This document shows positions 2,656-57,700 of a stretch of DNA of 64,000 nucleotides, piece by piece. This DNA is from Lingula anatina (Eukaryota > Animalia > Brachiopoda): positions 6,138,001 to 6,202,000 of the forward strand of contig CM120642.1 of assembly GCA_051362555.1 (NCBI GenBank), written 5' to 3'. Positions within the stretch are counted from its first letter, which is position 1. Every line of letters starts with the position of its first letter. The notes beneath the pieces are model-generated. The model worked only from the letters and a program-made list of their open reading frames with translations. It was not told where the DNA came from and did no database searches. Both the position numbers and the translations under genes were made by a program.

Positions 2656-3745
2656 ACAATGCCTTGTTTTATACAAGAGGATTGTGACTAAGCTTGAGAA
2701 AATTGTTGTATTTTGCCAACATGTTTAAGAACCTTTGTGAAAATGGTTTCATACTTCAGAAGCTGAATGGAACTAGAATAACTTTCTTCTGAACACAAAC
2801 AGATAGTATTACACTAACTGAAGTTTTTTCTTTAACTTTTTATGAATGGATGTCATTTTAACAATCATTTCACTTTATCTTTTCGTTTTGAAAATCTTTT
2901 TTGTTTCAATAAATTTACTTATAATATTGTAAACATAATGAAAACCACAAAAACTGACATGAAAATGAATTTCATTCTTTAAGAACAAAAGATTTCTCTT
3001 CACTGTACTGTAATAAATATGTATAATTTTCCTCCATAGATCATGTACAATAAATATGATTCATTCAACAGCACTTCCTGTGCTAATTCAAAACTTGTGA
3101 TGGTTCATTTATAATTCACAATGTTGTTATCCTTATGGATAAAAAATGACACAATCAATAACACTGAAAATATGCAGCAACAAAGTTTCCATTTACCTTC
3201 ATAAATGCTGTCTATTTGTCATTGTTTACCTACTGAAAGCAAATGCTGCCTCCCTGTCTCAACGATTCTTCAAAATTCGCTTTAGATTCTTCGCTTTTTC
3301 AAACAAGCACCTGTAAAATCCGCATTAATGTCTCCAAGTGCATGTATACATGTACACTAAGTGATAAGCATACCATCTGCTGAGATGATTTACATCGAGT
3401 CAACCTCTAACACATCTTAGACCCATGATGAAAGCACAGCTCCCATGCCAAATGCCAGTAAAATAGAGGTCATAATATTTTGTGCATTTGTTCTGGTTAC
3501 TGGTCAGTGTTTCTGCTTTAGCCCAAAAGATTCCTAGACCTTTGGAGATTTAAATTCTTGGCCAAGACTGCTCCCAATTCCCATATACCTCTGGCATTTC
3601 TTGAAACCATTTACATGAACAACTTCCATCTCTCATATTGTAAAAACTATGGTGATGGCAACCATACAATTTTTTAAAATTTAGTTGTCATTTTATATAA
3701 TCCAACTCCAGTATTTCCTGGAGGACCTCCACAGATCAATGCCTG

Positions 3746-4571
3746 CTATACGTGCACCATTCCATACAAAAATCTGAACACAGGGTTAAGAAATTTAGGC
3801 TTGAAAGATTTTAAATTACTCTCAAATCATATCATTATCTATGATTTTATACTCCTTGTTTAGTTAATGCCTAATGTTCAATAGAAAGTTCTTATCTTAA
3901 AAAAACTGTACACTGTTAACATTTTCTGTTATATATATATAACTTTAAATTTAGGACACTTTAGGGAACATGAAATACAAACATTTTGTTTTTTACTCAC
4001 CCAATTAATAATTGAAAAGGATACGTCCAAAATAAAATATATGTCTGGAAGGAAAATCTGTCAAGGAAAACAGAAGAGAAGTCAATATTAACAAGGTTAC
4101 CTATATTTTCTTTCTGCTATATATTCATTGTACAGATTGTGTTAATCCCCATACATATCTCCAGTAATCTAGGATGCAAGTTACATTTGTAGGTTAACAA
4201 TGAAAATTTTTGAAAGCAAAAAAAAAGAAAATAGTGTAAAATAAGTATAATATTATCCATGTTAACAAGGATACAAATAAACCTCCTAGTAATCCTCCTG
4301 TAAAGAAACCTATTCTGGATCTGAAATATCTGTGCCACTGGGATCCTGCCTTCATCAACAGCATCACCTAATAAAAGAGAAAAGACTATATTCTGTATCA
4401 AATATCAAAATCAAATGTAGCAATGACAGCTAAAACTATATTCTGTATCAAAATCAAATACAACTGTAAGAAACCTTAACAACATTAAATGACCCCACCC
4501 TTTTTTTTTTTGGGGGGGGGGGGATGTCTTTAATCTTTCTATTTTTTTGAAATTATAAATTTCAATTTTTC

Positions 4572-4605
<34 letters not shown>

Positions 4606-5179
4606 TTTACAATCCTTGCTATAATATGCTACGCTAGGCAGTTATTAGGGACAATGTTCAAATTCTATTTAAAAACAAAAATATTATGTGCAAAGAAACA
4701 TACTGATAAAATGAATGCAGTAACAAAGTAAAAAATAAATCCAAACAATCCAGTCAGTCCCAGTATCCCTGCAGTAGACCCAGACAGCGCAGACATCGAT
4801 GTTCTACAGTAATCCAAAACAGCTGCATTCTGACGCATGGACACCTCACTGTAGGCTGTTGGTTCTTTTAATGAAAACAGAAATAAATGTTATGGGCATT
4901 GAAGAGTGATCTCAACTTGTTGAAAAATATTATTATCACACAAGACGTACAAAGGAACCGGCGGCAAGGAGTTTTATGGTGCTCGACTACCTACATATAT
5001 GGCATGGCAAATTCCTTGATTATCTTGCAATAAATTTAGAAATCAAGATTATCAAGTGTACGTCGTTGGCAGATATGTGCCTTTTATTGTAAATGCCCTG
5101 TTTTTATCAAATCAGGGCAGAGTTAATTACCTTTTCTTGTGGACCGTCTCGGTGTTTTCACTGCCATGGTGGTCGCCAT
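3746..5179 (-). CDS. EMC6: ER membrane protein complex subunit 6 (EMC6/TMEM93); five coding exons 5179-5131, 4864-4704, 4367-4275, 4044-4025, 3773-3746; 116 aa
   Basis: Spliced translation [116 protein letters not shown] matches EMC6 motifs ([43 protein letters not shown]). All introns are GT-AG, and the exon lengths 49+161+93+20+28=351 nt keep frame. Confidence 0.96.
3774..4024 (-). other. EMC6: U12-type (minor spliceosome) GT-AG intron, EMC6 intron 4
   Basis: 5' splice site GTATCCTTTT; branch-like TTTCTTAAC (3793-3785) about 12 nt from the 3' AG; no extended polypyrimidine tract. Confidence 0.88.
4045..4274 (-). other. EMC6: U12-type (minor spliceosome) GT-AG intron, EMC6 intron 3
   Basis: 5' splice site GTATCCTT; U12 branch-like TTTTCCTTGAC (4070-4060) about 16 nt from the 3' AG. 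Confidence 0.88.
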
Positions 5180-42367: not shown

Positions 42368-44025
42368 GTAATTACCCTGAACTTCAAGGGTTCTGACAAG
42401 ACTTCTCTATTTCATTCTCTTTCAGTTTATTCGGGAGCGTCATAATTTGCCTGGCTGCGCAGGATAGCCCGTCTAAGATTCTGAAACTCTTGGGTGAATT
42501 TTGGAGAACTGTTGTCTCAGAGAATACCTGAATTATATAACATCTGGGAGGTTCAATTTGTTCTGACCCATATAGCCTGGTTGTGTAAATATTCCTTGTG
42601 CCATACATGTGTTTTCACACCTCCAGCAGGTATGTGGTTCATCTGTTATGTCAGAAGGTGGTATGTGATTACGCACTATCAGTGTTTTTTTAGGCTATCA
42701 TTCTCTCCATATATATGCGGCTAGCTACTGATCTGATCCAGGAATTTTTTTCAGTGTGTGTCAGGTATTTGTGTAAAAACTGGACATACTTGCCTTTGCG
42801 TTTGCATAAACTTTTGAAAAGATGTGCTTATGACTCTTTTGTAGCAGAAATTATAGCAAGACAATAAAAAAGGAGGTGATCTACTCAAAATAAATTGCTT
42901 GCAAGCTTTGCCTGAATGGTACGAATCAGTTAAATGTAGAAACCCCCCCCCCTGCCCCCCCACGTTTTCGTGCAAGAGAACATAGGCACTTCGATGCAGA
43001 GGTATAAAAAGGTTATAAATAAGACAAAAGTGTAATGGGTTTCGCAGAAGAGGCAAGAAAGATGGACTTCGACAGGACAGTGTTCATTGAGCAGCATCTT
43101 GCACTTGAGTATGATACAAAATGGTGTTGATGCTTTTTACAGACTACATTTTCACCTTCACCAGTCGTATTGATTTTGTTATTTTCTAAGTATTCCTTTG
43201 TGGTAGTAAATACAGTATTGTTACCCAAGCAGAAGTCTTCTGTCATTACAGATGGTTCCTTTATGGCCATTATGTGCAGAATTTTGCACAGTGTATGAAT
43301 TGGGAACATTTGTCTTTTAAATGGCTCTATATTGCAGGTTTTAGGGAAACGGAGAAATCTGTTTACTTACCAGGACAATACAGGCAGTTTTGTGAATGTC
43401 CTTGGCATCCCCCCCCCCCCTTCCAATAATACTGTGAATATCAAATTAATAGTCTCTCATAATAAATTATTTTTTCAATCAAATTTTGAGGAGAGACCTT
43501 TCTTTCAAAGTGGTTCCATTGTGACAACATACCCCATAATGGTTATTCTTGGTAATGAAAAATGTCCTCTTTCAATATTGTTTCTTTTCTTTTCTCTATT
43601 AATCCCTGAAAAGGGTATTCTTATTGGGTCTTATGGGAAATTATCTTGGAGGCCATTTCCAAACTGATGAGATTTACTTGATACTTTATCCCCTTTGGGA
43701 GTAGTACTACAAGTGCCATATGTTATGATCATTTAGTTAATGAAGAGTTACTGTCCTCTATATATGTTTGATAAGGAATAGATGGGGAATGGTAATTTGT
43801 GACTATAATTGTATCTAAAGGATATGGCAGTCGGTGACCTCGGGATCGGGTCTTAATAATTGAATAGTGGGGATTCATTAAAAGTGTGGCTGTACTTTAA
43901 GGAAGAAACGTGCGTCATAGAGAGAGAAAGAGGGAGGAGGAGGGAGAATGGAAAAGGGAGTGATTAAAGGAGAGTGGTGGAAGTGAGAAAGACAAACAAT
44001 AGAAAAAAGACAGTACTAAGAAGGC

Positions 44026-44435
44026 CGGGAATGCACCCACTCTTTGAACCCAGTGGGGAATGCACCCACTCTTTGAACCCAGTGGGGAATACACCCACTC
44101 TTTGAACCCAGTGGGGAATGCATCCACTCTTTGAACCCAGTGGGGAATCCACCCATCTTTGAACCCAGTAGGGAATGCACCCACTCTTTGAACCCAGTGG
44201 GGAATGCATCCACTCTTTGAACCCAGTGGGGAAGCCACCCATCTTTGAACCCAGTAGGGAATGCACCCACTCTTTGAACCCAGTGGGGAATGCATCCACT
44301 CTTTGAACCCAGTGGGGAATACACCCATCTTTGAACCCAGTAGGGAATGCACCCACTCTTTGAACCCAGTGGGGAATACTCCCACTCTTTGAACCCAGTG
44401 GGATCCCAGTAATAACTCAGTAGGAACCCAGTGGG
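44026..44435 (+). repeat. Minisatellite, 28-29-bp unit GGGGAATGCACCCACTCTTTGAACCCAGT, about 13 copies
   Basis: Head-to-tail units at 44026, 44055, 44084 and onward with no spacers; explains the repetitive minus-strand ORFs 43915-44538. Confidence 0.95.
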
Positions 44436-45550
44436 GCATAATTGAACTGCCTGCAGGAGGCAGCCGGGGAGTGGCAGATAAATATTGCAAAAGATCAGCT
44501 GTGTTCCTGCCAGAGCAGATGCTCAGTGGGATTGTCATGGCTGCTTTCCTGAAATAGGCAAAAAAAAGTTCAATTTACAGAGCACAGTATTATTAATTAC
44601 ATGGGTCTAGAGGGAGGCATTGTGAAGCTGCCAGTCATTTTGATTTCCTTTCTGAAATTTATGGATTCTGTTATTGTCCCTGCCAGTGAAGGAAGCTGTA
44701 GCATTGTTGTGTACTATATATAAATATATATGTGTATGTACGTATTTCATGTCTGGCTTACTTAATATAGCAGACTTGAAATCTTCCATGACATCATGCT
44801 ATAACTCTATTATGTTTTTATTTATAACTGTCTTGTGGTGAAGCAGCATGTGACAAGTTTACGAAGTTTGTTGGGTGTGCTTATATAGTATATATATGTG
44901 TGGATTGTATTATGCCATAAAACCAGTATATGCTTTATTAGCTGTTATAAAGGGTAAGGGAAAGATACATCCAGTGTTAAGTGGAGAAGAAGGTAGGAGG
45001 TTCATTGTTTTAAAACATGGAAAGGTTTCTTTACTTAGAACATTGTGGTTGAAGCTAATGCATGGTGGCGAAAGGTTACATTGTTTTTAAAGTACGATAT
45101 TTAGCTAAAAATAACTGTAATACTATGGATGTGGTTGACTTTACGTGTCTGTTCATGTGATGTGAGTATGTAAGTACAAACTGTTATCTGAAAATGACCA
45201 ACCTGCAAGAAATTTGAGGCAACCAGCGCAACCCATGTGCTTTCTTTTCTTTTCCTTTTATTTTTGAACTGGGGGAAAGTTTTCACTTTCTGAGTAGAGA
45301 ATGCCATATTATCGCATGTACTTCCTTAAATTTTATTGTTAGCCATGTCTGACTTAGGATAAATAGAAGCTGAGCACAAAGTTTATTACTACCAGCAGCA
45401 ATTTTGCCAATGGCTGTCTAGAAAAAGTAGACTGGCTGACATATCTCACAAGTTGGAGAGTGATGTGCATGATTACATACAATATTGTGATATTGTTTCC
45501 ATTTCTTTTCATTTCTTTTCAATGAAAAAAAAATCTTTTGTATATTCCAG

Positions 45551-48500
45551 GTACCTGGTCCACCATACGTACGGGGGCTACCATTGTAACAGAATGGAGG
45601 ACCAGAACACAGAAGACCTGTACCGATCCATAAACCATGCGGAACGCATGATCCGCAAGGTGGAAGTCTATGCACAAAAACGTTTACTCTGTGATGTCGT
45701 CCTGCTCGTGGGAGAGCGCACCATTCCAGCTCATAGGCTCATTCTTAGTGCAGCTTCCGATTACTTCGCTGCGATGTTTACAAATGACGTCCGCGAGGCC
45801 ACACAAGAGGAGATTAGGATGAAGGACGTTGATTCTGATGCCCTAGCTGCTTTAGTACAGTACATGTATACTGGTAGGTTAACAGTACCACTTCACAATT
45901 TAAACTTTTCTAAGGGCGCATTCCCATAGATTTTAGATCGATCTATCCCCGTGGGTAATCTCACTAGATTACTGTCAGATAATCTGGCTTAAATGTCCGT
46001 CCCGCCTACTATAAGCTGTAAGGGGGTAATTAACTTTCGTACCTGCTCGGTTGACAGCTATTTAGCGTGAACCCCCAGGGAGTTAGGTCGATCTAGTTGG
46101 ATCGATCTAATCTCTGGGAATGGGGTATAAAACTGTTTTGTTTAAGAATTTAATTTTTGTGTGTTTGTTTGCACGTGATTTTGCTCATGTGGGCATGAAC
46201 AATGAAATCACTCTCTGATTTCCAGCAGATTTGATCATTCATAATTATCCTTTAAAAGTTGTACCTGAAAAAAATTTTGACATTTTTTTTTTTTCAAGTG
46301 AGCTGGGCTAATGTCAGCCATTGTGTTTTCAAAAGTAGCAACAAAAAGTTTTGTTTGAAAAGACATACTAGAATAAGCGATTATGTTTGAAATCTGTGAA
46401 CAATTGCAGTATACATTGACAAGGAAGCAGAGAATGTGCACTGTAATCAAGACAAGAAAATACCCCCGCAGCCACCAGTATGTTACTATTAGGAGAAAAA
46501 TAAGATTGTCACCAGGTTGGAACATGTGAAAGAATTCCTAGTAAAGATGATGTACATTATTAATGAGCTCTAAATGTGACACAGCATATTTCATTGAAAT
46601 GGATTATTTTTTTCACTATTATGTGGAATGGGACCTTTATTAGACAAAAAAGGGATTGCAACCAAGATGAATGTTGCATTTGATAGAAATTCAAATAAAG
46701 ATGGTGTAATGCAATATTAATTTGCTATAAAATGACATTGTATTGAAGTAGATTTTTTCTCTCAATGTTGCTTAGAAGGGGACCTAATTAAGTCTAATGA
46801 AACAACAAATAATTTGCTTAGGCATTAAACTGAAAAGATAATCAGTTGATTTTTTACCAGTTAAAGTTTTCCCCCTGAGGACATTTGTTTAATGTCACAC
46901 ATGTGTGTCACACATTGTAACGTATGCATCTACATGGATAGATGAAAATGTACAAAGGAATGCAAATATATATAAATATGAATTATGATCAAAAGTGATA
47001 TTGTATGACTCCTTGTATGAAAAAAAAAAAATACAAAACATATTTGGCGGAGCCCAAATAGCTCTACCTACTCAACACATGTGTGTGTGTGTAATGCCCA
47101 ACTTATTCTGTGTGCTTTCATCTGCCCTTCTGTAATTTTAGCCTCACTTTGGCATTATAAGTTAACTTAAGTATGAAGTGCATTTGATGTGATTGTTTCC
47201 TGAAATGACTATGAAAATTTATAAAACATAAACATAGATTGAAGCTTGTAGCCATAGGGTGTCTGTAGCTCAGCTTGAAGGTCACAGTGTATGCTGGCCT
47301 CTAGAAACATTCAGATGCAATATGATGTTGTGTATAAACTACAAATGGCCTGTTACCAGGAGTAAAATTAAGGAGCTTAACCCAGAGGCAGTTAAGACTC
47401 ATTACACAAAGCCATCGCTGTCAGAGAAAAATTACCAAGAGCACAGCCCATAAATACGGGTGACAGGGAGAAATCCACGGGGGACGGCAAAGAGCATGGG
47501 AAAGTTTTTTATTGCATTAGAATACTGTGTCTTTTAGCACCTCTCAGTGAGGCTGAGTCACTGTAAATGGCATGACATCATCCTATTAGATAATAGAAAT
47601 AATGGTCCCAGTGTATCAGAGGGATGAAGTGAACAAATCTGATTATCAATTATTTAGAACAAGCTTTTAAGAGAAGGGATTTCATTCTGTTATTATATTT
47701 TCCAAACACATTAAGTATGCATGCTCACATATGTGCGATAAAAAGAATTACGTTTGAGCTAGTATCATAAAACATTGAAGATTTGCAAATGTAAGATAGA
47801 CGCTAGCTGATTCCATTAGTTTTATGATTTTTATTGTTCATTAATGAAGTTGAGATGGATAAGAATCACCTTCTGGCATATGGAATTAAAGCTGGAGAAA
47901 AAAACAGGTGTTGGGAGACTACTAGCTGCAATCAGTGAAAAAACGTATTGTATTCTTTCCATTGATCCAAACTTGATGAAAAGATTCGGTGCCTGGTCAG
48001 TTGGGGAGAATAATGAATGCTAAAAAGGCTGAATGACTGAAAGAAACATGATAGAACTAGCTGATATTTGGTTTTCTAAATGAGGAAAACTCAGCTGTGG
48101 TTTTCTTTATGTACATAAGTGATCAATATGATGCGTACAGAAAAAGCTTTTAGTCCTTGCTATCTTGAGCTATTGATTTTCACATCTTCCCTGAGAGTTG
48201 AGACAAATTTGATAAAGGATCTTTCCCCTAGATTTAATGAAAAAGGTTCAGGAGAGCCTGAAGGGGAAGCTTGCGATGGCCATAAAAATTCTATTACCAA
48301 TGATTGTTGACACTTATATTTAACTGTTAGATTTCATACATATCCGACTTTCGCAGATTTTGATTGGGTTTTTCTTTGTCAAGCATGCCTGATTTATTCC
48401 CGTTTTCCATTCGTGACAGGAATCCTTTGAAATGCAAGTTGAGAGATTTCGACGTTTTGAATGACTGTCATCAACAGAAGAGATCTTTTTTGTCGAGATG

Positions 48501-51500: not shown

Positions 51501-54500
51501 ATAATAAGTAGGAAATGACTTTGGTTTCATACCAATGGCTGCTTGTTTTGATTGACATCTAGAGATCTATTATGAATTAAAGTCAATTAAAATTCAGGTC
51601 TTAAAGTTAAAACTTTTAGCCAAGTTTTTTTTTTCAATCCATCTCCTGATATAATGCAGGTTTTGATATCTTTCTGATTTCAAGAATGCCTTCACAGATA
51701 GCATAGGACCATAGGGGTTGGTGGTCAGCAGCTTGCCTTCTCCAAGTAGGCGTCAACTTATAAGCTTTTACCAAATGTTAAGATCTGTACAACTTTCAAA
51801 GACGACCTTAGGAGAGGTGTTTAGCCATGGTATAATTCACTTCCCAATCTCAGTTTTACTCTGTACTTGAAAATATCATTACTGCATTTTTCTTTAGCTA
51901 AATTACATCCACATGTATTACATTTTTACAATTTACTTTTTCATTACTCTCATTTCCTTTAAACTTTGCTGAAAATCTGTTTTTCATACAAGAATAAACT
52001 TTGTTCGTTCCTTTTTTCCCCTTTCTGCTGAAACAAGTTTTCAGGAATGTCAATAACGAGGCACAGGTTTCACTGATTAATTGTCAACAAGTAGCTCAAA
52101 ATGACTTGAACCCAACCAATTTTTTCTTAAGTTCAAAATGTCCCCCTTCCTGCGATAAATACCCAAAGGAATTTTATTATTTTTGGCACCACTATGATCT
52201 GTATTTCCCTGTTCTTATTTAAGAGAAGTGGTTTAAGAGGTAATTTTTTCAACCGAAATTTGATATTCTCTTTGACAAGACATAAATACAAAAGAACATT
52301 TTTTTCACTGACAGTTTTGCATTTAATGGCCCCAAGGAATGAAACTGCTATAAAGAAGATAATTTATTTTGGGTAGGGGGTATGAGATAAGAGGAAGAAT
52401 AGCAGCAATATAACATATGTACATAAGTTACACAGAGCATTTGCATACTAGAATTAAAGACTGTGAAGACATTTTATAAAAACAATTCATTTACTAAAAC
52501 AATAACTATCATGATTTTGTGACATTCACTTGGTTCAAACCAGTATACTCATAAGTACGTCTTGTTATGCCAACAGACTGTGTTCATATTCTTCATTTAG
52601 ACAATAATAAACTCCATGTAAAACCAATCAATCAATTAAAACAAACAAGTAAGATAACTGTCATGTTTTTCTGACATTCACTTGGCACAGCCAGGTATAC
52701 CCAGCAGCTTATCTTAGAATCTAATACATTACTGCAAGCATCTCCAATCCTGAAGGAACTTGTAAGGGGGGGGGGGGCACTTTAGATGATTCTTTTAGGC
52801 AACAGGCAAGCTATTCAGTTGTCGATCTCTCAGTTAATTGTACCACTGGATGTGAAAGGGGCCTTAATGAGGGGTAATTGCTCCTGAATTTTCAGATATT
52901 TCACTCATTCCAAACATCATGTCATTTTTGAGATTTATAATGTTTAGATACTCACAGATGTATTTCTGAACTAAACCTATTCTAAATATTGTTAGTAGGA
53001 TATTATACTTTTTTTTAACATACAAGCAATAAAAACTGTTTAAATTTCATTAAAAATTACTGCAATCCCAATGGAATATTAACAATGCATCTTAATCTCA
53101 AAAGGTGTTTGCTTAAAAAATAGGGATGCCAAGATAGTAATATTTTCGTGGATGCTTTTGCCAAAGTGTAATGTCACAGGGCTAGCATTTTCTTTGAATT
53201 TCAAGAATTACCCAGATGTTGGAAAATATTCCTGAATTAGTTGCAGGGACTTGGCATGTTTGATCACTTAATGTGCTTACTTTTGATTGGCAGTTCTGTT
53301 AAAGGTAAACTAGTTTGTATAATGTCATCATTTTTTTCCCCCTCTTTACCTTGAGCATTGTCCCATTTCCGTATATTTTCCTAAACTTTACACAAGATGA
53401 ACAGCTTCTGTTGACAGAGGACGGAAATAGTTTTTCTTTGCAAAGAAAACAATGGGAAAGTCTACACAAAGATGATGGGTGGCCATACTGGTGGCTGAGA
53501 AATTGGTTAAGTAAAGATACCTTCTTAGACAGTGTTCTGCTCTCTTGAATAAAGTTACATGACAAAATGTCAGGAAATATGAGTCTTGTCTAAAATTAAT
53601 GTTTCTTTTTACTTGCAGGAAATTTGAAGGAAGCAAGCATGCTACAAAGCATTGTTTAGTCTATGCTGGAAAGATGATGAATCATGACATGGCCAGCTAA
53701 TACTAATACCCTGAATGATTATGCATATATTCTTCCAGCTCAGTAAGATGCTGAATAATCTGTTGTCATGAGTCACATGTTAAAACTTTTTCTCTTTTTG
53801 TGGCTTCCTTCTTCAGGTTTTTGAATTGCTGAAGTATAAATGTATGCATATCAACACTACTAACAGGTTGCCAACTCTTGGAAATATGAACATTTACCTG
53901 TGCTGTACATGTTATGTGCTAACTCATCCAAGAATATGCAGCACTTTGTTTCATGCAAATATGTGAAATGGTTTACATATGTGTATGCTATGTATATGCT
54001 ATTTTGATTGCATGGCACTTGTTTTCGGGGAAGTCTACAAACCCATTTTAGCTAGCCACTGTAATTTGACCACCAGCCCACACCTAGAGGGTACCATGGG
54101 TTTGGCCAGGAACCTCTACCTCAACTGCTGGATATACAAAACCCTATCACCACCATCACTGGCACTTCTCCTCATATACCACAATGGCCTTACTTTATAC
54201 TTATACTTTCAGGAAAAATTTAACTCTGAGATTAATTTGTCATGTCTTGATAGTTTTACTCTTAGGAAAGTTGAACTCCAAGATGAGTCTGCTATGTGTT
54301 GACATTTTTACTTTCAGGAAATATTGAGCTCTGTGATGAGTCTGACATGTCCTTATATTTATACTTTCTGAAGGAACAGTGCGCTGAGATGAATTTGTCA
54401 CAGCTGTACATTTTTACTTACAAAAAATACAAAGCTCAGTGACGAGTCCATCATATCATTATTTTTCTCCTTCCAGGAAGAATTGAGCTGCGAGATGAAT

Positions 54501-54683
54501 CTGTGGAGAGCCTTCTGTCCACGGCGTGTTTACTCCAGCTGTCTGAGGTGGTAGAGGCATGCTGCGGCTATCTCATGAAGCAGCTTCATCCTTCCAACTG
54601 TTTAGGAATACGGCAGTTTGCCGATGCTCAGGGATGTACAGATCTGTATAAAGTCGCCAATAACTATGTCATGGTAAGTGAAG

Positions 54684-54726
<43 letters not shown>

Positions 54727-57700
54727 ATATTTTCATTGCATTATTTGGAGGAAGATCATAAAACTGATAATGATGATAATAATAATCATAGTAATAAGAA
54801 AAATAAAGATAATAGTAATAATAGTTATTATAGTAATTATTATGTATCGAACCCATTTCTTCAGATGATCAGATGTCACAGACCATTTGGTAAGTTGAGA
54901 TTTCTGATGGGTGAAATCGTGGGAAGAGCCCAATATTTCTGTTAAAAAAGAACAGCAGTATAATTATCTCTTTATTTTCATTCTTGAAGGAAAACTTTTG
55001 TGATGTGATGCAAAATCAGGAGTTCTGCGAGCTGTCAGCAGATGAGGTGTCCAAACTCCTGACAAATGACGATCTGAACGTGCCAAATGAAGAAATGACT
55101 TTTCATGCGCTGTGCACGTGGGCAAAACACGACATGAGCACACGCAAAAAATACCTCAGTAAATTACTCGCCAATGTCAAACTGCCATTATTACCTCCAC
55201 AGGTGAGATTGTTTGGATGGTTGGTTGATGCATTGATTGATAGATGGACTGACTGACTGATTGACAGCTTGGTTTGTTAGTTCATTGGTCAGTTGGTGGA
55301 TGGAATAATTGATTAGCAGATTCACAAAGAAATCTTGCCGAGTCAGTTAAGCATGGAGCCTTAAGGTGTGAATTGATCAATGGCCAGGTTTTATAGAAAA
55401 TCTGAGTTAAAAGTAGAATCTGGTGTATGTGGTTCCTTTTAAAGATCTTTTGTTGCTTCCCTAGCTTGCCGTTTCTTTTTGATAAGTAACATTCAGAGGC
55501 ATACTTAAAACCTGAACTTGTTGGAATGAAAAATATGTCACAAAATATTCAAACCCATTCAGGATTGGTAATGTTAACAGAGGTGATATTGGGTATTTTT
55601 CTGGAATGGGTTCTGCACCTTACTGATATGTTATTTTCCTCTGTGGAATTGGATTTAGTCCTTTAGATGCATACTTACACTTAAACCTGTTCAGTAATAA
55701 AATGTGTATCTAAAGGACTAAATCCAATTCCAGTGTGCAAATAGGCTCAGTTTCACAAAATCAGCTATTTTAATTTGACAGCTTCTTTCCTTGATCCACT
55801 TTTAATTTATTTTGTGCTTTTTTATGTTTTTGTAAAACAAGCCCCAATATAATAGAATCATCCCAGTCAGTGTCTTGACAGCTTATCCCCTTCATCCCTT
55901 TTTCAGTTCATTGCGGACCACGTAGAAACTAATGCTCTATTTAAGGAAGACAGAGAATGTCAGGAACTGATAATGGAGGCCTTGAAGTACCACCTCCTCC
56001 CCGAACGCCGCCATTCCCTCCAAAGTCCTCGCACCAAGCCGCGGAAGTCCACGGTGGGCGTCCTGTATGCCGTAGGAGGGATGGACTGCACCAAAGGTGA
56101 GTGTAAGTTGAACCTTTTTATTTAGTTGCTTTAATCTTGCTTATTTCTTTAAAGGCACACAGTGAGCTTTAGACCTTTGTATATTATGTAGAGGATTGTT
56201 TATATTCATGGAAATTTTGACTCTTTGGCTTTTGATCACCCTAGGTTTGCTGTATACAAAACTGATGACACAATCACAATCTATAATCCTTTGTTTTCTT
56301 GGAGTTTCTTATTTTGGAATCACTCTTATAATGAAGATGCACACTGTTGAACACCGCTTTTGGTGATAAGAATAAGAAATACAGAAGTTAAAAAACAAAT
56401 TTATAGATAGTGATTTTCTCAACAGATTTAGATAGGGTACAGCATGTTGTGATAAAGAGAAAGTTGCTGAAGTTTCCTGGAAAATGTTCTCCTCAGCTTT
56501 AAGAAGGTCTAACATGCGTTGTTTGCCTCTGTTAACTTGATAGTTTCTTCAAACAACGGAATTATTTGCACTTCAATATATTGGTGTCTCACCAGACACT
56601 TCCTAATGGATATGAAGCTACATCCATTGCAGTGTAAATAATGCAGAGTTCAGCTGGTGTTTGAAGAAATTATTATTGTCACTTTAGATGTACAACACAG
56701 CTGATAAAATTCTTTGTTGCCTAATCTTTCTTTTTTTATGAAAATTTTTTTTTTTTAAGTAAGAACAGGCACATTTATAGCTGGGTTCTATTTTACTGGT
56801 GGTTGATATTAGATTGTGTTGAGTGATTAATTTTGTTGTCACTTAACTCTTACTTTAATCATTTATTTAACATTAGATGTCACTGATTATGAATTAGTCT
56901 GTTATTTTGCTGTTCAATTGTGGGGTAATCTCAATACATTCTGGCACTTCCATTTATTATGACAACCTCTCTAAGTTGTTTTAATAAAGCAGGTAGTTTT
57001 TAAGAGAGTAAGTCGCTATGTGTATAAAAAAAGTCACTATGTTTTTAAGAGTCACTGAAATGGAATCCCTGTGCTGGGCATTGCTAGTTAACCTGATTGA
57101 ATTTGACTGATCCAAACTTGCAAAAGGGGGGCATCCTCCCCCACCCCACCTCCTCAATAGTGTAATTACATGTTAAGACGAGTTTTAAGTGTTTTGATAC
57201 ATATATGTATGTGTTTAAAGCACAGATTTTAAAAAGGCCAAAGAATGCCTTTGGAATAACCAGAAATTTGTTCTATTCAAATCTAGTATTATCTCTGTTG
57301 ATAACCCTGCTTGGGTGGAGATCTTGGAGCTAAATTGCCTGGTTATCTGCTGATGAGGACTTACTTGGTTAACAGGAGGGCATTTTCTTCATTTCTCTCT
57401 CAGTCAGCTGAAAAGATAAACTGTTGCCACAATGAATTGTGGTTGGATAAAGACTATTTTGGATTGGAATAATTGGATCTAACTTGAGGCCGTCAGACAA
57501 TTCCCAGTTACACTGCAGACTTTTGAATTCCATGTACTTGGTCTTCTATTGAACACAAGTAGGACCAATATCTGTCCAAAGTTGTCCCTGTCTGAGCAGG
57601 CCAGAGAGGACTGATTTGCTGGTGTCGGGAGGATATAGAATGATATTCCTTTGTGATCTCCTCAATTTGTTTTGGGCACTTTGTTATCATTAAAATAAAT

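Follow-up and report, generated by a model that had tools for sequence, protein, structure and literature searches.

Minor (U12-type) introns have been described as clustering in genes, with the question of whether their slow excision limits expression under dispute (Moyer et al. 2020, PMC7367187). Directly adjacent minor introns have also been reported; in mouse, 12 of 722 minor introns have a minor neighbour, for example in Derl2 (Olthof et al. 2019, PMC6717393), where the exon between the two measures 94 nt, compared to 20 nt in the EMC6 gene of Lingula anatina described here. Moyer et al. reported U12 positions common to animals and plants, as is that of EMC6 intron 4 below, the comparison of human with Arabidopsis yielding only 8 of 93 human U12 introns in well-aligned regions. 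The same authors proposed that conversion runs one way, from U12 to U2, a direction which is assumed by Larue and Roy 2023 (PMC10639083), and that phase-0 U12 introns become U2-type when the preceding wobble base can become G, which strengthens U1 pairing. Their evidence consists of genome-wide phase and base biases, whereas EMC6 presents a single orthologous phase-0 intron in both states, preceded by Met or Leu in one and by Phe in the other, and adjoining a phase-2 intron (intron 4) which has hardly been converted. Exons beside minor introns are known to be skippable (Olthof et al. 2021, PMC8034651; reviewed in PMC8329584), as the EMC6 micro-exon may be; in those reports the skipping is performed by the major spliceosome when the minor spliceosome fails, whereas in EMC6 a skip ties the U12 donor of one intron to the U12 acceptor of the next, for which the minor spliceosome would be required. 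EMC6 belongs to the core of the ER membrane protein complex, which is destabilised when this subunit is lost (PMC7188443), and L. anatina is relatively enriched in minor introns according to Larue and Roy (PMC10639083).

The EMC6 gene of Lingula anatina

The window (the whole stretch of L. anatina DNA which was analysed, 64 kb in length) contains five minus-strand exons, the spliced product of which, 116 amino acids long, is identical to L. anatina EMC6 (P0001). Exon 2 matched the Pfam EMC6 family (PF07019) with 42.8 bits against a cut-off of 23.3, and human EMC6 (PDB 6ww7 chain F) was found to be an orthologue across residues 14-116 (E 1.4e-45); full-length orthology and the Pfam match identify the gene as EMC6. 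Its features are as follows.

5131 to 5179, minus strand: exon 1 (coding part), start codon at 5179; junction 4864-5131 in 32 reads
4865 to 5130, minus strand: intron 1, 266 nt, phase 1, donor GTAATT, U2-like
4704 to 4864, minus strand: exon 2, containing the Pfam EMC6 match (PF07019)
4368 to 4703, minus strand: intron 2, 336 nt, phase 0, donor GTATGT, U2-like
4275 to 4367, minus strand: exon 3, last codon Phe (TTT), giving T before the intron 3 donor
4045 to 4274, minus strand: intron 3, 230 nt, phase 0, GT-AG, U12-type signals; junction in 27 reads
4025 to 4044, minus strand: micro-exon, 20 nt, encoding residues 102-107 and two bases of Thr108
3774 to 4024, minus strand: intron 4, 251 nt, phase 2 in the Thr108 codon, GT-AG, U12-type signals; junction in 24 reads
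3746 to 3773, minus strand: last exon, coding part up to the stop codon

Read depth in the 3' UTR extends as far as bin 2984-3067. The micro-exon was mapped to the C-terminal hydrophobic helix in a single-sequence fold, which is a weak model (pLDDT 72, pTM 0.41). There was no second copy of EMC6 within the 64-kb window; the P0001 protein has two identical RefSeq accessions against this one copy, and the assembly may contain a further locus or haplotype.

Other coding stretches were also observed in the window. Those at 1909-2652, 45363-45926 and 54443-54865, all on the plus strand, are Kelch-like or carry BTB/BACK domains, with only the BTB match at 45363 passing its Pfam cut-off, and the first of them (1909-2652) is convergent on the 3' end of EMC6. 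Tandem repeats with long open frames on the minus strand occupy 43918-44574.

Junctions, inclusion and skipping in RNA reads

RNA reads were taken from four of nine listed runs, each sampled in part (about 6 or 25 in 100), and supported all four EMC6 junctions. The original prediction, made from the DNA sequence, had placed a 20-nt exon at 4044-4025 with junctions 4275/4044 and 4025/3773, and both junctions were found at exactly these positions, the first in 27 reads from three of the four runs and the second in 24 reads from all four. The exon itself was present in mRNA reads of every run as a short internal exon, and the gene feature is confirmed as a real observation.

The prediction had also suggested that EMC6 output would be very sensitive to minor-spliceosome activity, and had proposed that retention and skipping be measured. 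No retention was seen to bear out such sensitivity: depth was zero in four bins lying wholly within introns 3 and 4 in all four runs, where the depth on exons 2 and 3 was shallow (about 5-25) and three of the four libraries were poly(A)-type, so that a low level of retention is possible. An apparent exon skip of 501 nt (3773-4275) was reported in 11 reads and was mostly rejected, as 9 of the 11 carry the 20-nt exon with one synonymous change and so span both junctions; true skipping reads number at most 2, again at shallow depth. The false skips were reported by the aligner because these reads differ from the micro-exon by one synonymous base. The variants, read off by hand, each involve one synonymous base, namely Leu TTA/TTG (9 reads) and Ile ATT/ATC (3 loose read ends). 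Inclusion of the micro-exon looks constitutive or near-complete at this shallow depth.

Translation of the spliced sequence agreed with the expectation that skipping would frameshift the C-terminus, the last 15 residues being replaced by 26 unrelated ones with five charges and a stop in the last exon. Micro-exons have an upper length of about 27-30 nt, and those regulated in the manner of SRRM4 targets have a length which is a multiple of 3, tissue-specific inclusion and U2-type flanks. The EMC6 exon differs from the latter on each count, being 20 nt long, frameshifting if skipped, flanked by U12-type introns and included almost completely.

U12-type signals of introns 3 and 4

Introns 1 and 2 have ordinary, U2-like donors (GTAATT and GTATGT), in line with the prediction. 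Both introns 3 and 4 start with GTATCCTT at junctions confirmed by RNA, in agreement with the 5' splice site pattern RTATCCTT. Intron 3 has the donor GTATCCTTG and the branch site TTTTCCTTGAC, whose branch A (4061) lies 16 nt before the intron end; intron 4 has the donor GTATCCTTT and the branch site TTTCTTAAC, whose A (3786) lies 12 nt before the end. The U12 branch-site consensus resembles TTCCTTRAY and lies approximately 10-20 nt upstream of the acceptor. Against it, intron 3 (CCTTGAC) showed 0 mismatches and intron 4 (TCTTAAC) 1 mismatch, and neither donor has a G at -1 or at +5. The claim of U12-type signals on both introns is upheld in this sense, the assignment being one of consensus matching of donor and branch site.

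The number of GTATCCTT copies on both strands of the window was not above chance (2 observed, 1.95 expected from 100 order-2 Markov simulations). That both copies lie at RNA-confirmed donors is above chance, the probability being 2.9e-4 per GT site. Four other RTATCCT sites in the window were without convincing exon or branch context.

The branch A of intron 3 and the donor of intron 4 are separated by 37 nt. An AG at 4059-4060 lies immediately 3' of the intron 3 branch site, 15 nt before the intron end, and the reads use the distal AG. Within intron 4, a perfect U2 donor (GG|GTGAGT, 4000-3995, minus strand) is situated 24 nt downstream of the U12 donor and, if used, would add 8 in-frame residues to the last helix; no reads were listed for a junction at 4000, and the position is not conserved, GTRAG being present no further than 80 nt from the donor of intron 4 in only 8 of 43 survey clusters (described below) and at varying offsets.

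Conservation of the exon and of intron 4

JGI metagenome contigs were scanned for the exon pattern with an AG upstream and a GTRWSY donor downstream, a pattern which admits common U2 as well as U12 donors and which is blind to AT-AC introns, some U2 donors and lineages having lost either intron. The 20-nt exon was recovered in 86 loci from animals, land plants and one protist lineage; the EMC6 block was coded in all 86, and flanking EMC6 exons were present wherever the contig reached. At 88% identity the loci formed 43 clusters, of which 25 were animal-type, 16 plant-type and 2 protist-type. Based on the best named match (27 loci checked over all groups), the animal-type loci were mostly annelid-like, with five insect-like clusters, and the plant-type loci matched flowering-plant proteins, three clusters being more distant. 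The named protein nearest to the protist-type loci was Acanthamoeba EMC6 (55% over 67 amino acids). Nothing was found when viral contigs were scanned with the exon pattern, and a protein scan of prokaryote genomes gave 599 pattern matches, none of which was confirmed.

The intron 4 donor was GTATCC in 85 of the 86 loci and GTGTCC in the remaining one, and a U12-like branch site with at most 1 mismatch was present in all 33 clusters with a located acceptor. Intron 4 is U12-type at an identical codon and phase in animals and land plants, with the same position and signals in the protist. It had been guessed that the structure might be ancestral, and it proved to be older than guessed, the exon and a U12 intron 4 being common to plants and a protist.

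In two protist-like loci (L001, 473-492, and L079) the same exon lies between a 56-nt U2 intron 3 and a 68-nt U12-type intron 4, and the spliced C-terminus matches that of a related protein, P0159. In P0177, P0182, P0189 and P0242 the frame runs from an intron-like Gln through the micro-exon block into the last exon, suggesting genes which may have kept intron 3 and lost intron 4. The read-through proteins P0210, P0231 and P0256 hint that U2-type intron 4 donors may exist in some organisms. The GenBank models of EMC6 from Brassica carinata, Lupinus albus, Dendrobium chrysotoxum and Capsicum chinense (P0268, P0272, P0276 and P0288, respectively) read into intron 4 as 'FWT-YP', which is the expectation if the U12 donor was missed in annotation.

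In RefSeq, isoforms X1 and X2 split directly after exon 3 both in the hemichordate Saccoglossus kowalevskii and in the insect Daktulosphaira vitifoliae. When frame-shifting deletions of 1-39 nt were considered, only one of 20 nt fitted both pairs, which are annotations and not reads.

The type of intron 3 and the preceding base

Intron 3 lies at the same codon boundary wherever it was located (the donor was found in 69 of the 86 loci, the other 17 being omitted from the count). Among 28 animal loci it was U12-type in 25 and began with GTATCT in 2, so that the signal is conserved in 27 of 28, while it was U2-type in all 36 plant and all 5 protist loci. The base at -1 was G in 41/41 plant and protist loci, the codon being ATG for Met or TTG for Leu; in 28/28 animal loci it was T or C (Phe, Cys or Ile). 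Base and intron type agreed in 68 of 69 loci. The nominal Fisher P value on 37 clusters (1e-9) is overstated, as base and type are confounded with ancestry and the contrast is one of animals, plants and one protist, about three lineages. A U12-like branch site was found upstream of the micro-exon in 24/25 animal and 2/16 plant clusters; the 2 protist clusters also passed this loose test, at 31 nt. At the protein level, of 139 sequences with an animal-type tail, 125 had Phe as the residue before the micro-exon block; of 40 others, 36 had Met or Leu. Read-through past exon 3 as 'VSF/VSL' (P0064, P0015) had been considered as a sign of a U12 donor and was dropped, as GTAAGT yields the same residues.

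One insect-like locus (L021) has T at -1 yet carries a 69-nt U2-type intron 3 (donor GTAATC) beside a U12 intron 4, an apparent U12-to-U2 conversion inside animals, and this exception means that the block on conversion is not absolute. The split in intron 3 type fits, without proving, the published model of conversion through G at -1.

The direction of change was also weighed. It is unlikely, in our estimate, that intron 3 was ancestrally U2 and became U12-type on the animal stem after a change of Met to Phe, helped by the neighbouring U12 intron. Both sampled non-animal groups are U2 at this position (14/14 plant and 2/2 protist clusters with a located donor), and on parsimony one gain and one reversal are fewer steps than the minimum of three conversions otherwise needed; such a history, however, requires that a donor and a branch site be acquired in concert, and both published surveys regard conversion as almost only minor-to-major (PMC10639083, PMC7367187). 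Several plant intron 3 donors start with GTAT (GTATGT, GTATAT), like decayed U12 donors, a weak point as GTATG is also a common U2 donor.

Discussion

The EMC6 pair is well supported; its parts are known ones, combined in an arrangement which is unusual and very old. The 20-nt exon lies between two GT-AG introns with U12 signals, and it is rather probable that the minor spliceosome removes both and that they are ancient relics kept because neighbouring codons hinder their conversion. In an early eukaryote, introns 3 and 4 would both have been of U12 type. The position of intron 4 inside a conserved Thr codon (AC|N) would fix C before its donor, while intron 3 lies between codons; where Met or Leu precedes it, as in plants and the protist, the G before the donor would favour U1 pairing and conversion. 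In animals the preceding Phe would exclude G, because no Phe codon ends in G. Codon constraint may in this way have retained both introns as minor in animals and intron 4 alone in plants and the protist.

Recognition across the intron by the U11/U12 particle is an established mechanism, and each EMC6 intron is probably recognised in this way, one after the other; sequential, intron-defined removal is suggested because the donor of intron 4 follows the branch A of intron 3 after only 37 nt. As introns 3 and 4 belong to the same type, the donor of intron 3 could join the acceptor of intron 4, which would yield the frameshifted skip isoforms of the hemichordate and the insect, probably as low-level error. 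More tentatively, and at somewhat less than even confidence, the exon in animals may be a cassette whose inclusion or skipping depends on the minor spliceosome alone.

A selected regulatory switch, in which two minor introns and a skippable exon make the amount of this core EMC subunit follow the activity of the minor spliceosome, is quite unlikely. Two U12 introns have been preserved side by side in brachiopod, annelid-like and insect-like loci, annotated skip isoforms come from two distant phyla (hemichordate and insect), loss of EMC6 destabilises the complex (PMC7188443), and switches of minor introns controlled by U6atac have been described (PMC3728624), all of which would suit such a role. 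Against it, no retention was seen in Lingula and real skips account for at most 2 of the 11 apparent reads, the skip tails vary in length and hydrophobicity from species to species, plants do with a single U12 intron in EMC6, the cryptic in-frame U2 donor at 4000 is without listed reads (with GTRAG near the intron 4 donor in 8/43 clusters), and minor-intron evolution is mostly neutral according to Larue and Roy (PMC10639083). The premise that U12 introns are often rate-limiting, which the original prediction had taken as established, is also weakened by work cited in Moyer et al., in which U12 excision was too near U2 rates to be limiting for expression (PMC7367187).

It is very improbable that the major spliceosome is what actually excises one or both introns, with vestigial U12-like signals, as the GT-AG ends and pyrimidine-rich 3' ends which would allow it are set against full GTATCCTT donors without G at -1 or +5, together with branch sites spaced as in U12 introns, both in the window and in the 43 clusters, and vestigial signals would not remain so conserved. 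The best reading of the pair is one of old minor introns whose type is maintained by codon constraint, rather than of a demonstrated regulatory sensor.

The coding sequence of human EMC6 is, we assume, a single exon, and the EMC6 introns were presumably lost in vertebrates. EMC6 was absent from the human and mouse minor-intron gene tables (supplements of PMC6717393, in which DERL2 was present as a control), so that comparisons anchored on human would miss these introns, and it was not found in the supplement files of PMC10639083, PMC11347168 and PMC7367187. PMC7206144 and PMC4816184 gave nothing on mammalian EMC6 gene structure, and a mouse Emc6 allele is described with loxP sites in 'intron 2' and 'intron 3', 673 bp apart, the coding parts being unstated (PMC10492031). 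No report of U12 introns in EMC6 was found in full-text searches; the databases IAOD and MIDB and that of Larue and Roy may well list them. The adjacent minor introns around a micro-exon are real; as to their rarity, for which the prediction had given usually one U12 intron per gene, several per gene is a known tendency and adjacent pairs are known.

What is new here is the RNA confirmation, the conservation of intron 4 in plants and a protist, and the switch of intron 3 type with the -1 base. Few minor-intron positions are common to animals and plants, and that in EMC6 seems to have been overlooked because mammalian EMC6 is not a listed minor-intron gene. There is also relevance for annotation, four plant gene models reading into intron 4. 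In one small gene a phase-2 intron has stayed minor and a phase-0 intron exists in both states, so that the -1G hypothesis is testable by a one-codon change in a minigene, and the animal form, with its 20-nt exon between two minor introns, is useful for the study of cooperation between minor introns. If the proposed explanation is true, this cassette exon would be a natural substrate for two minor spliceosomes acting across 20 nt and would offer a direct test of the -1G model.
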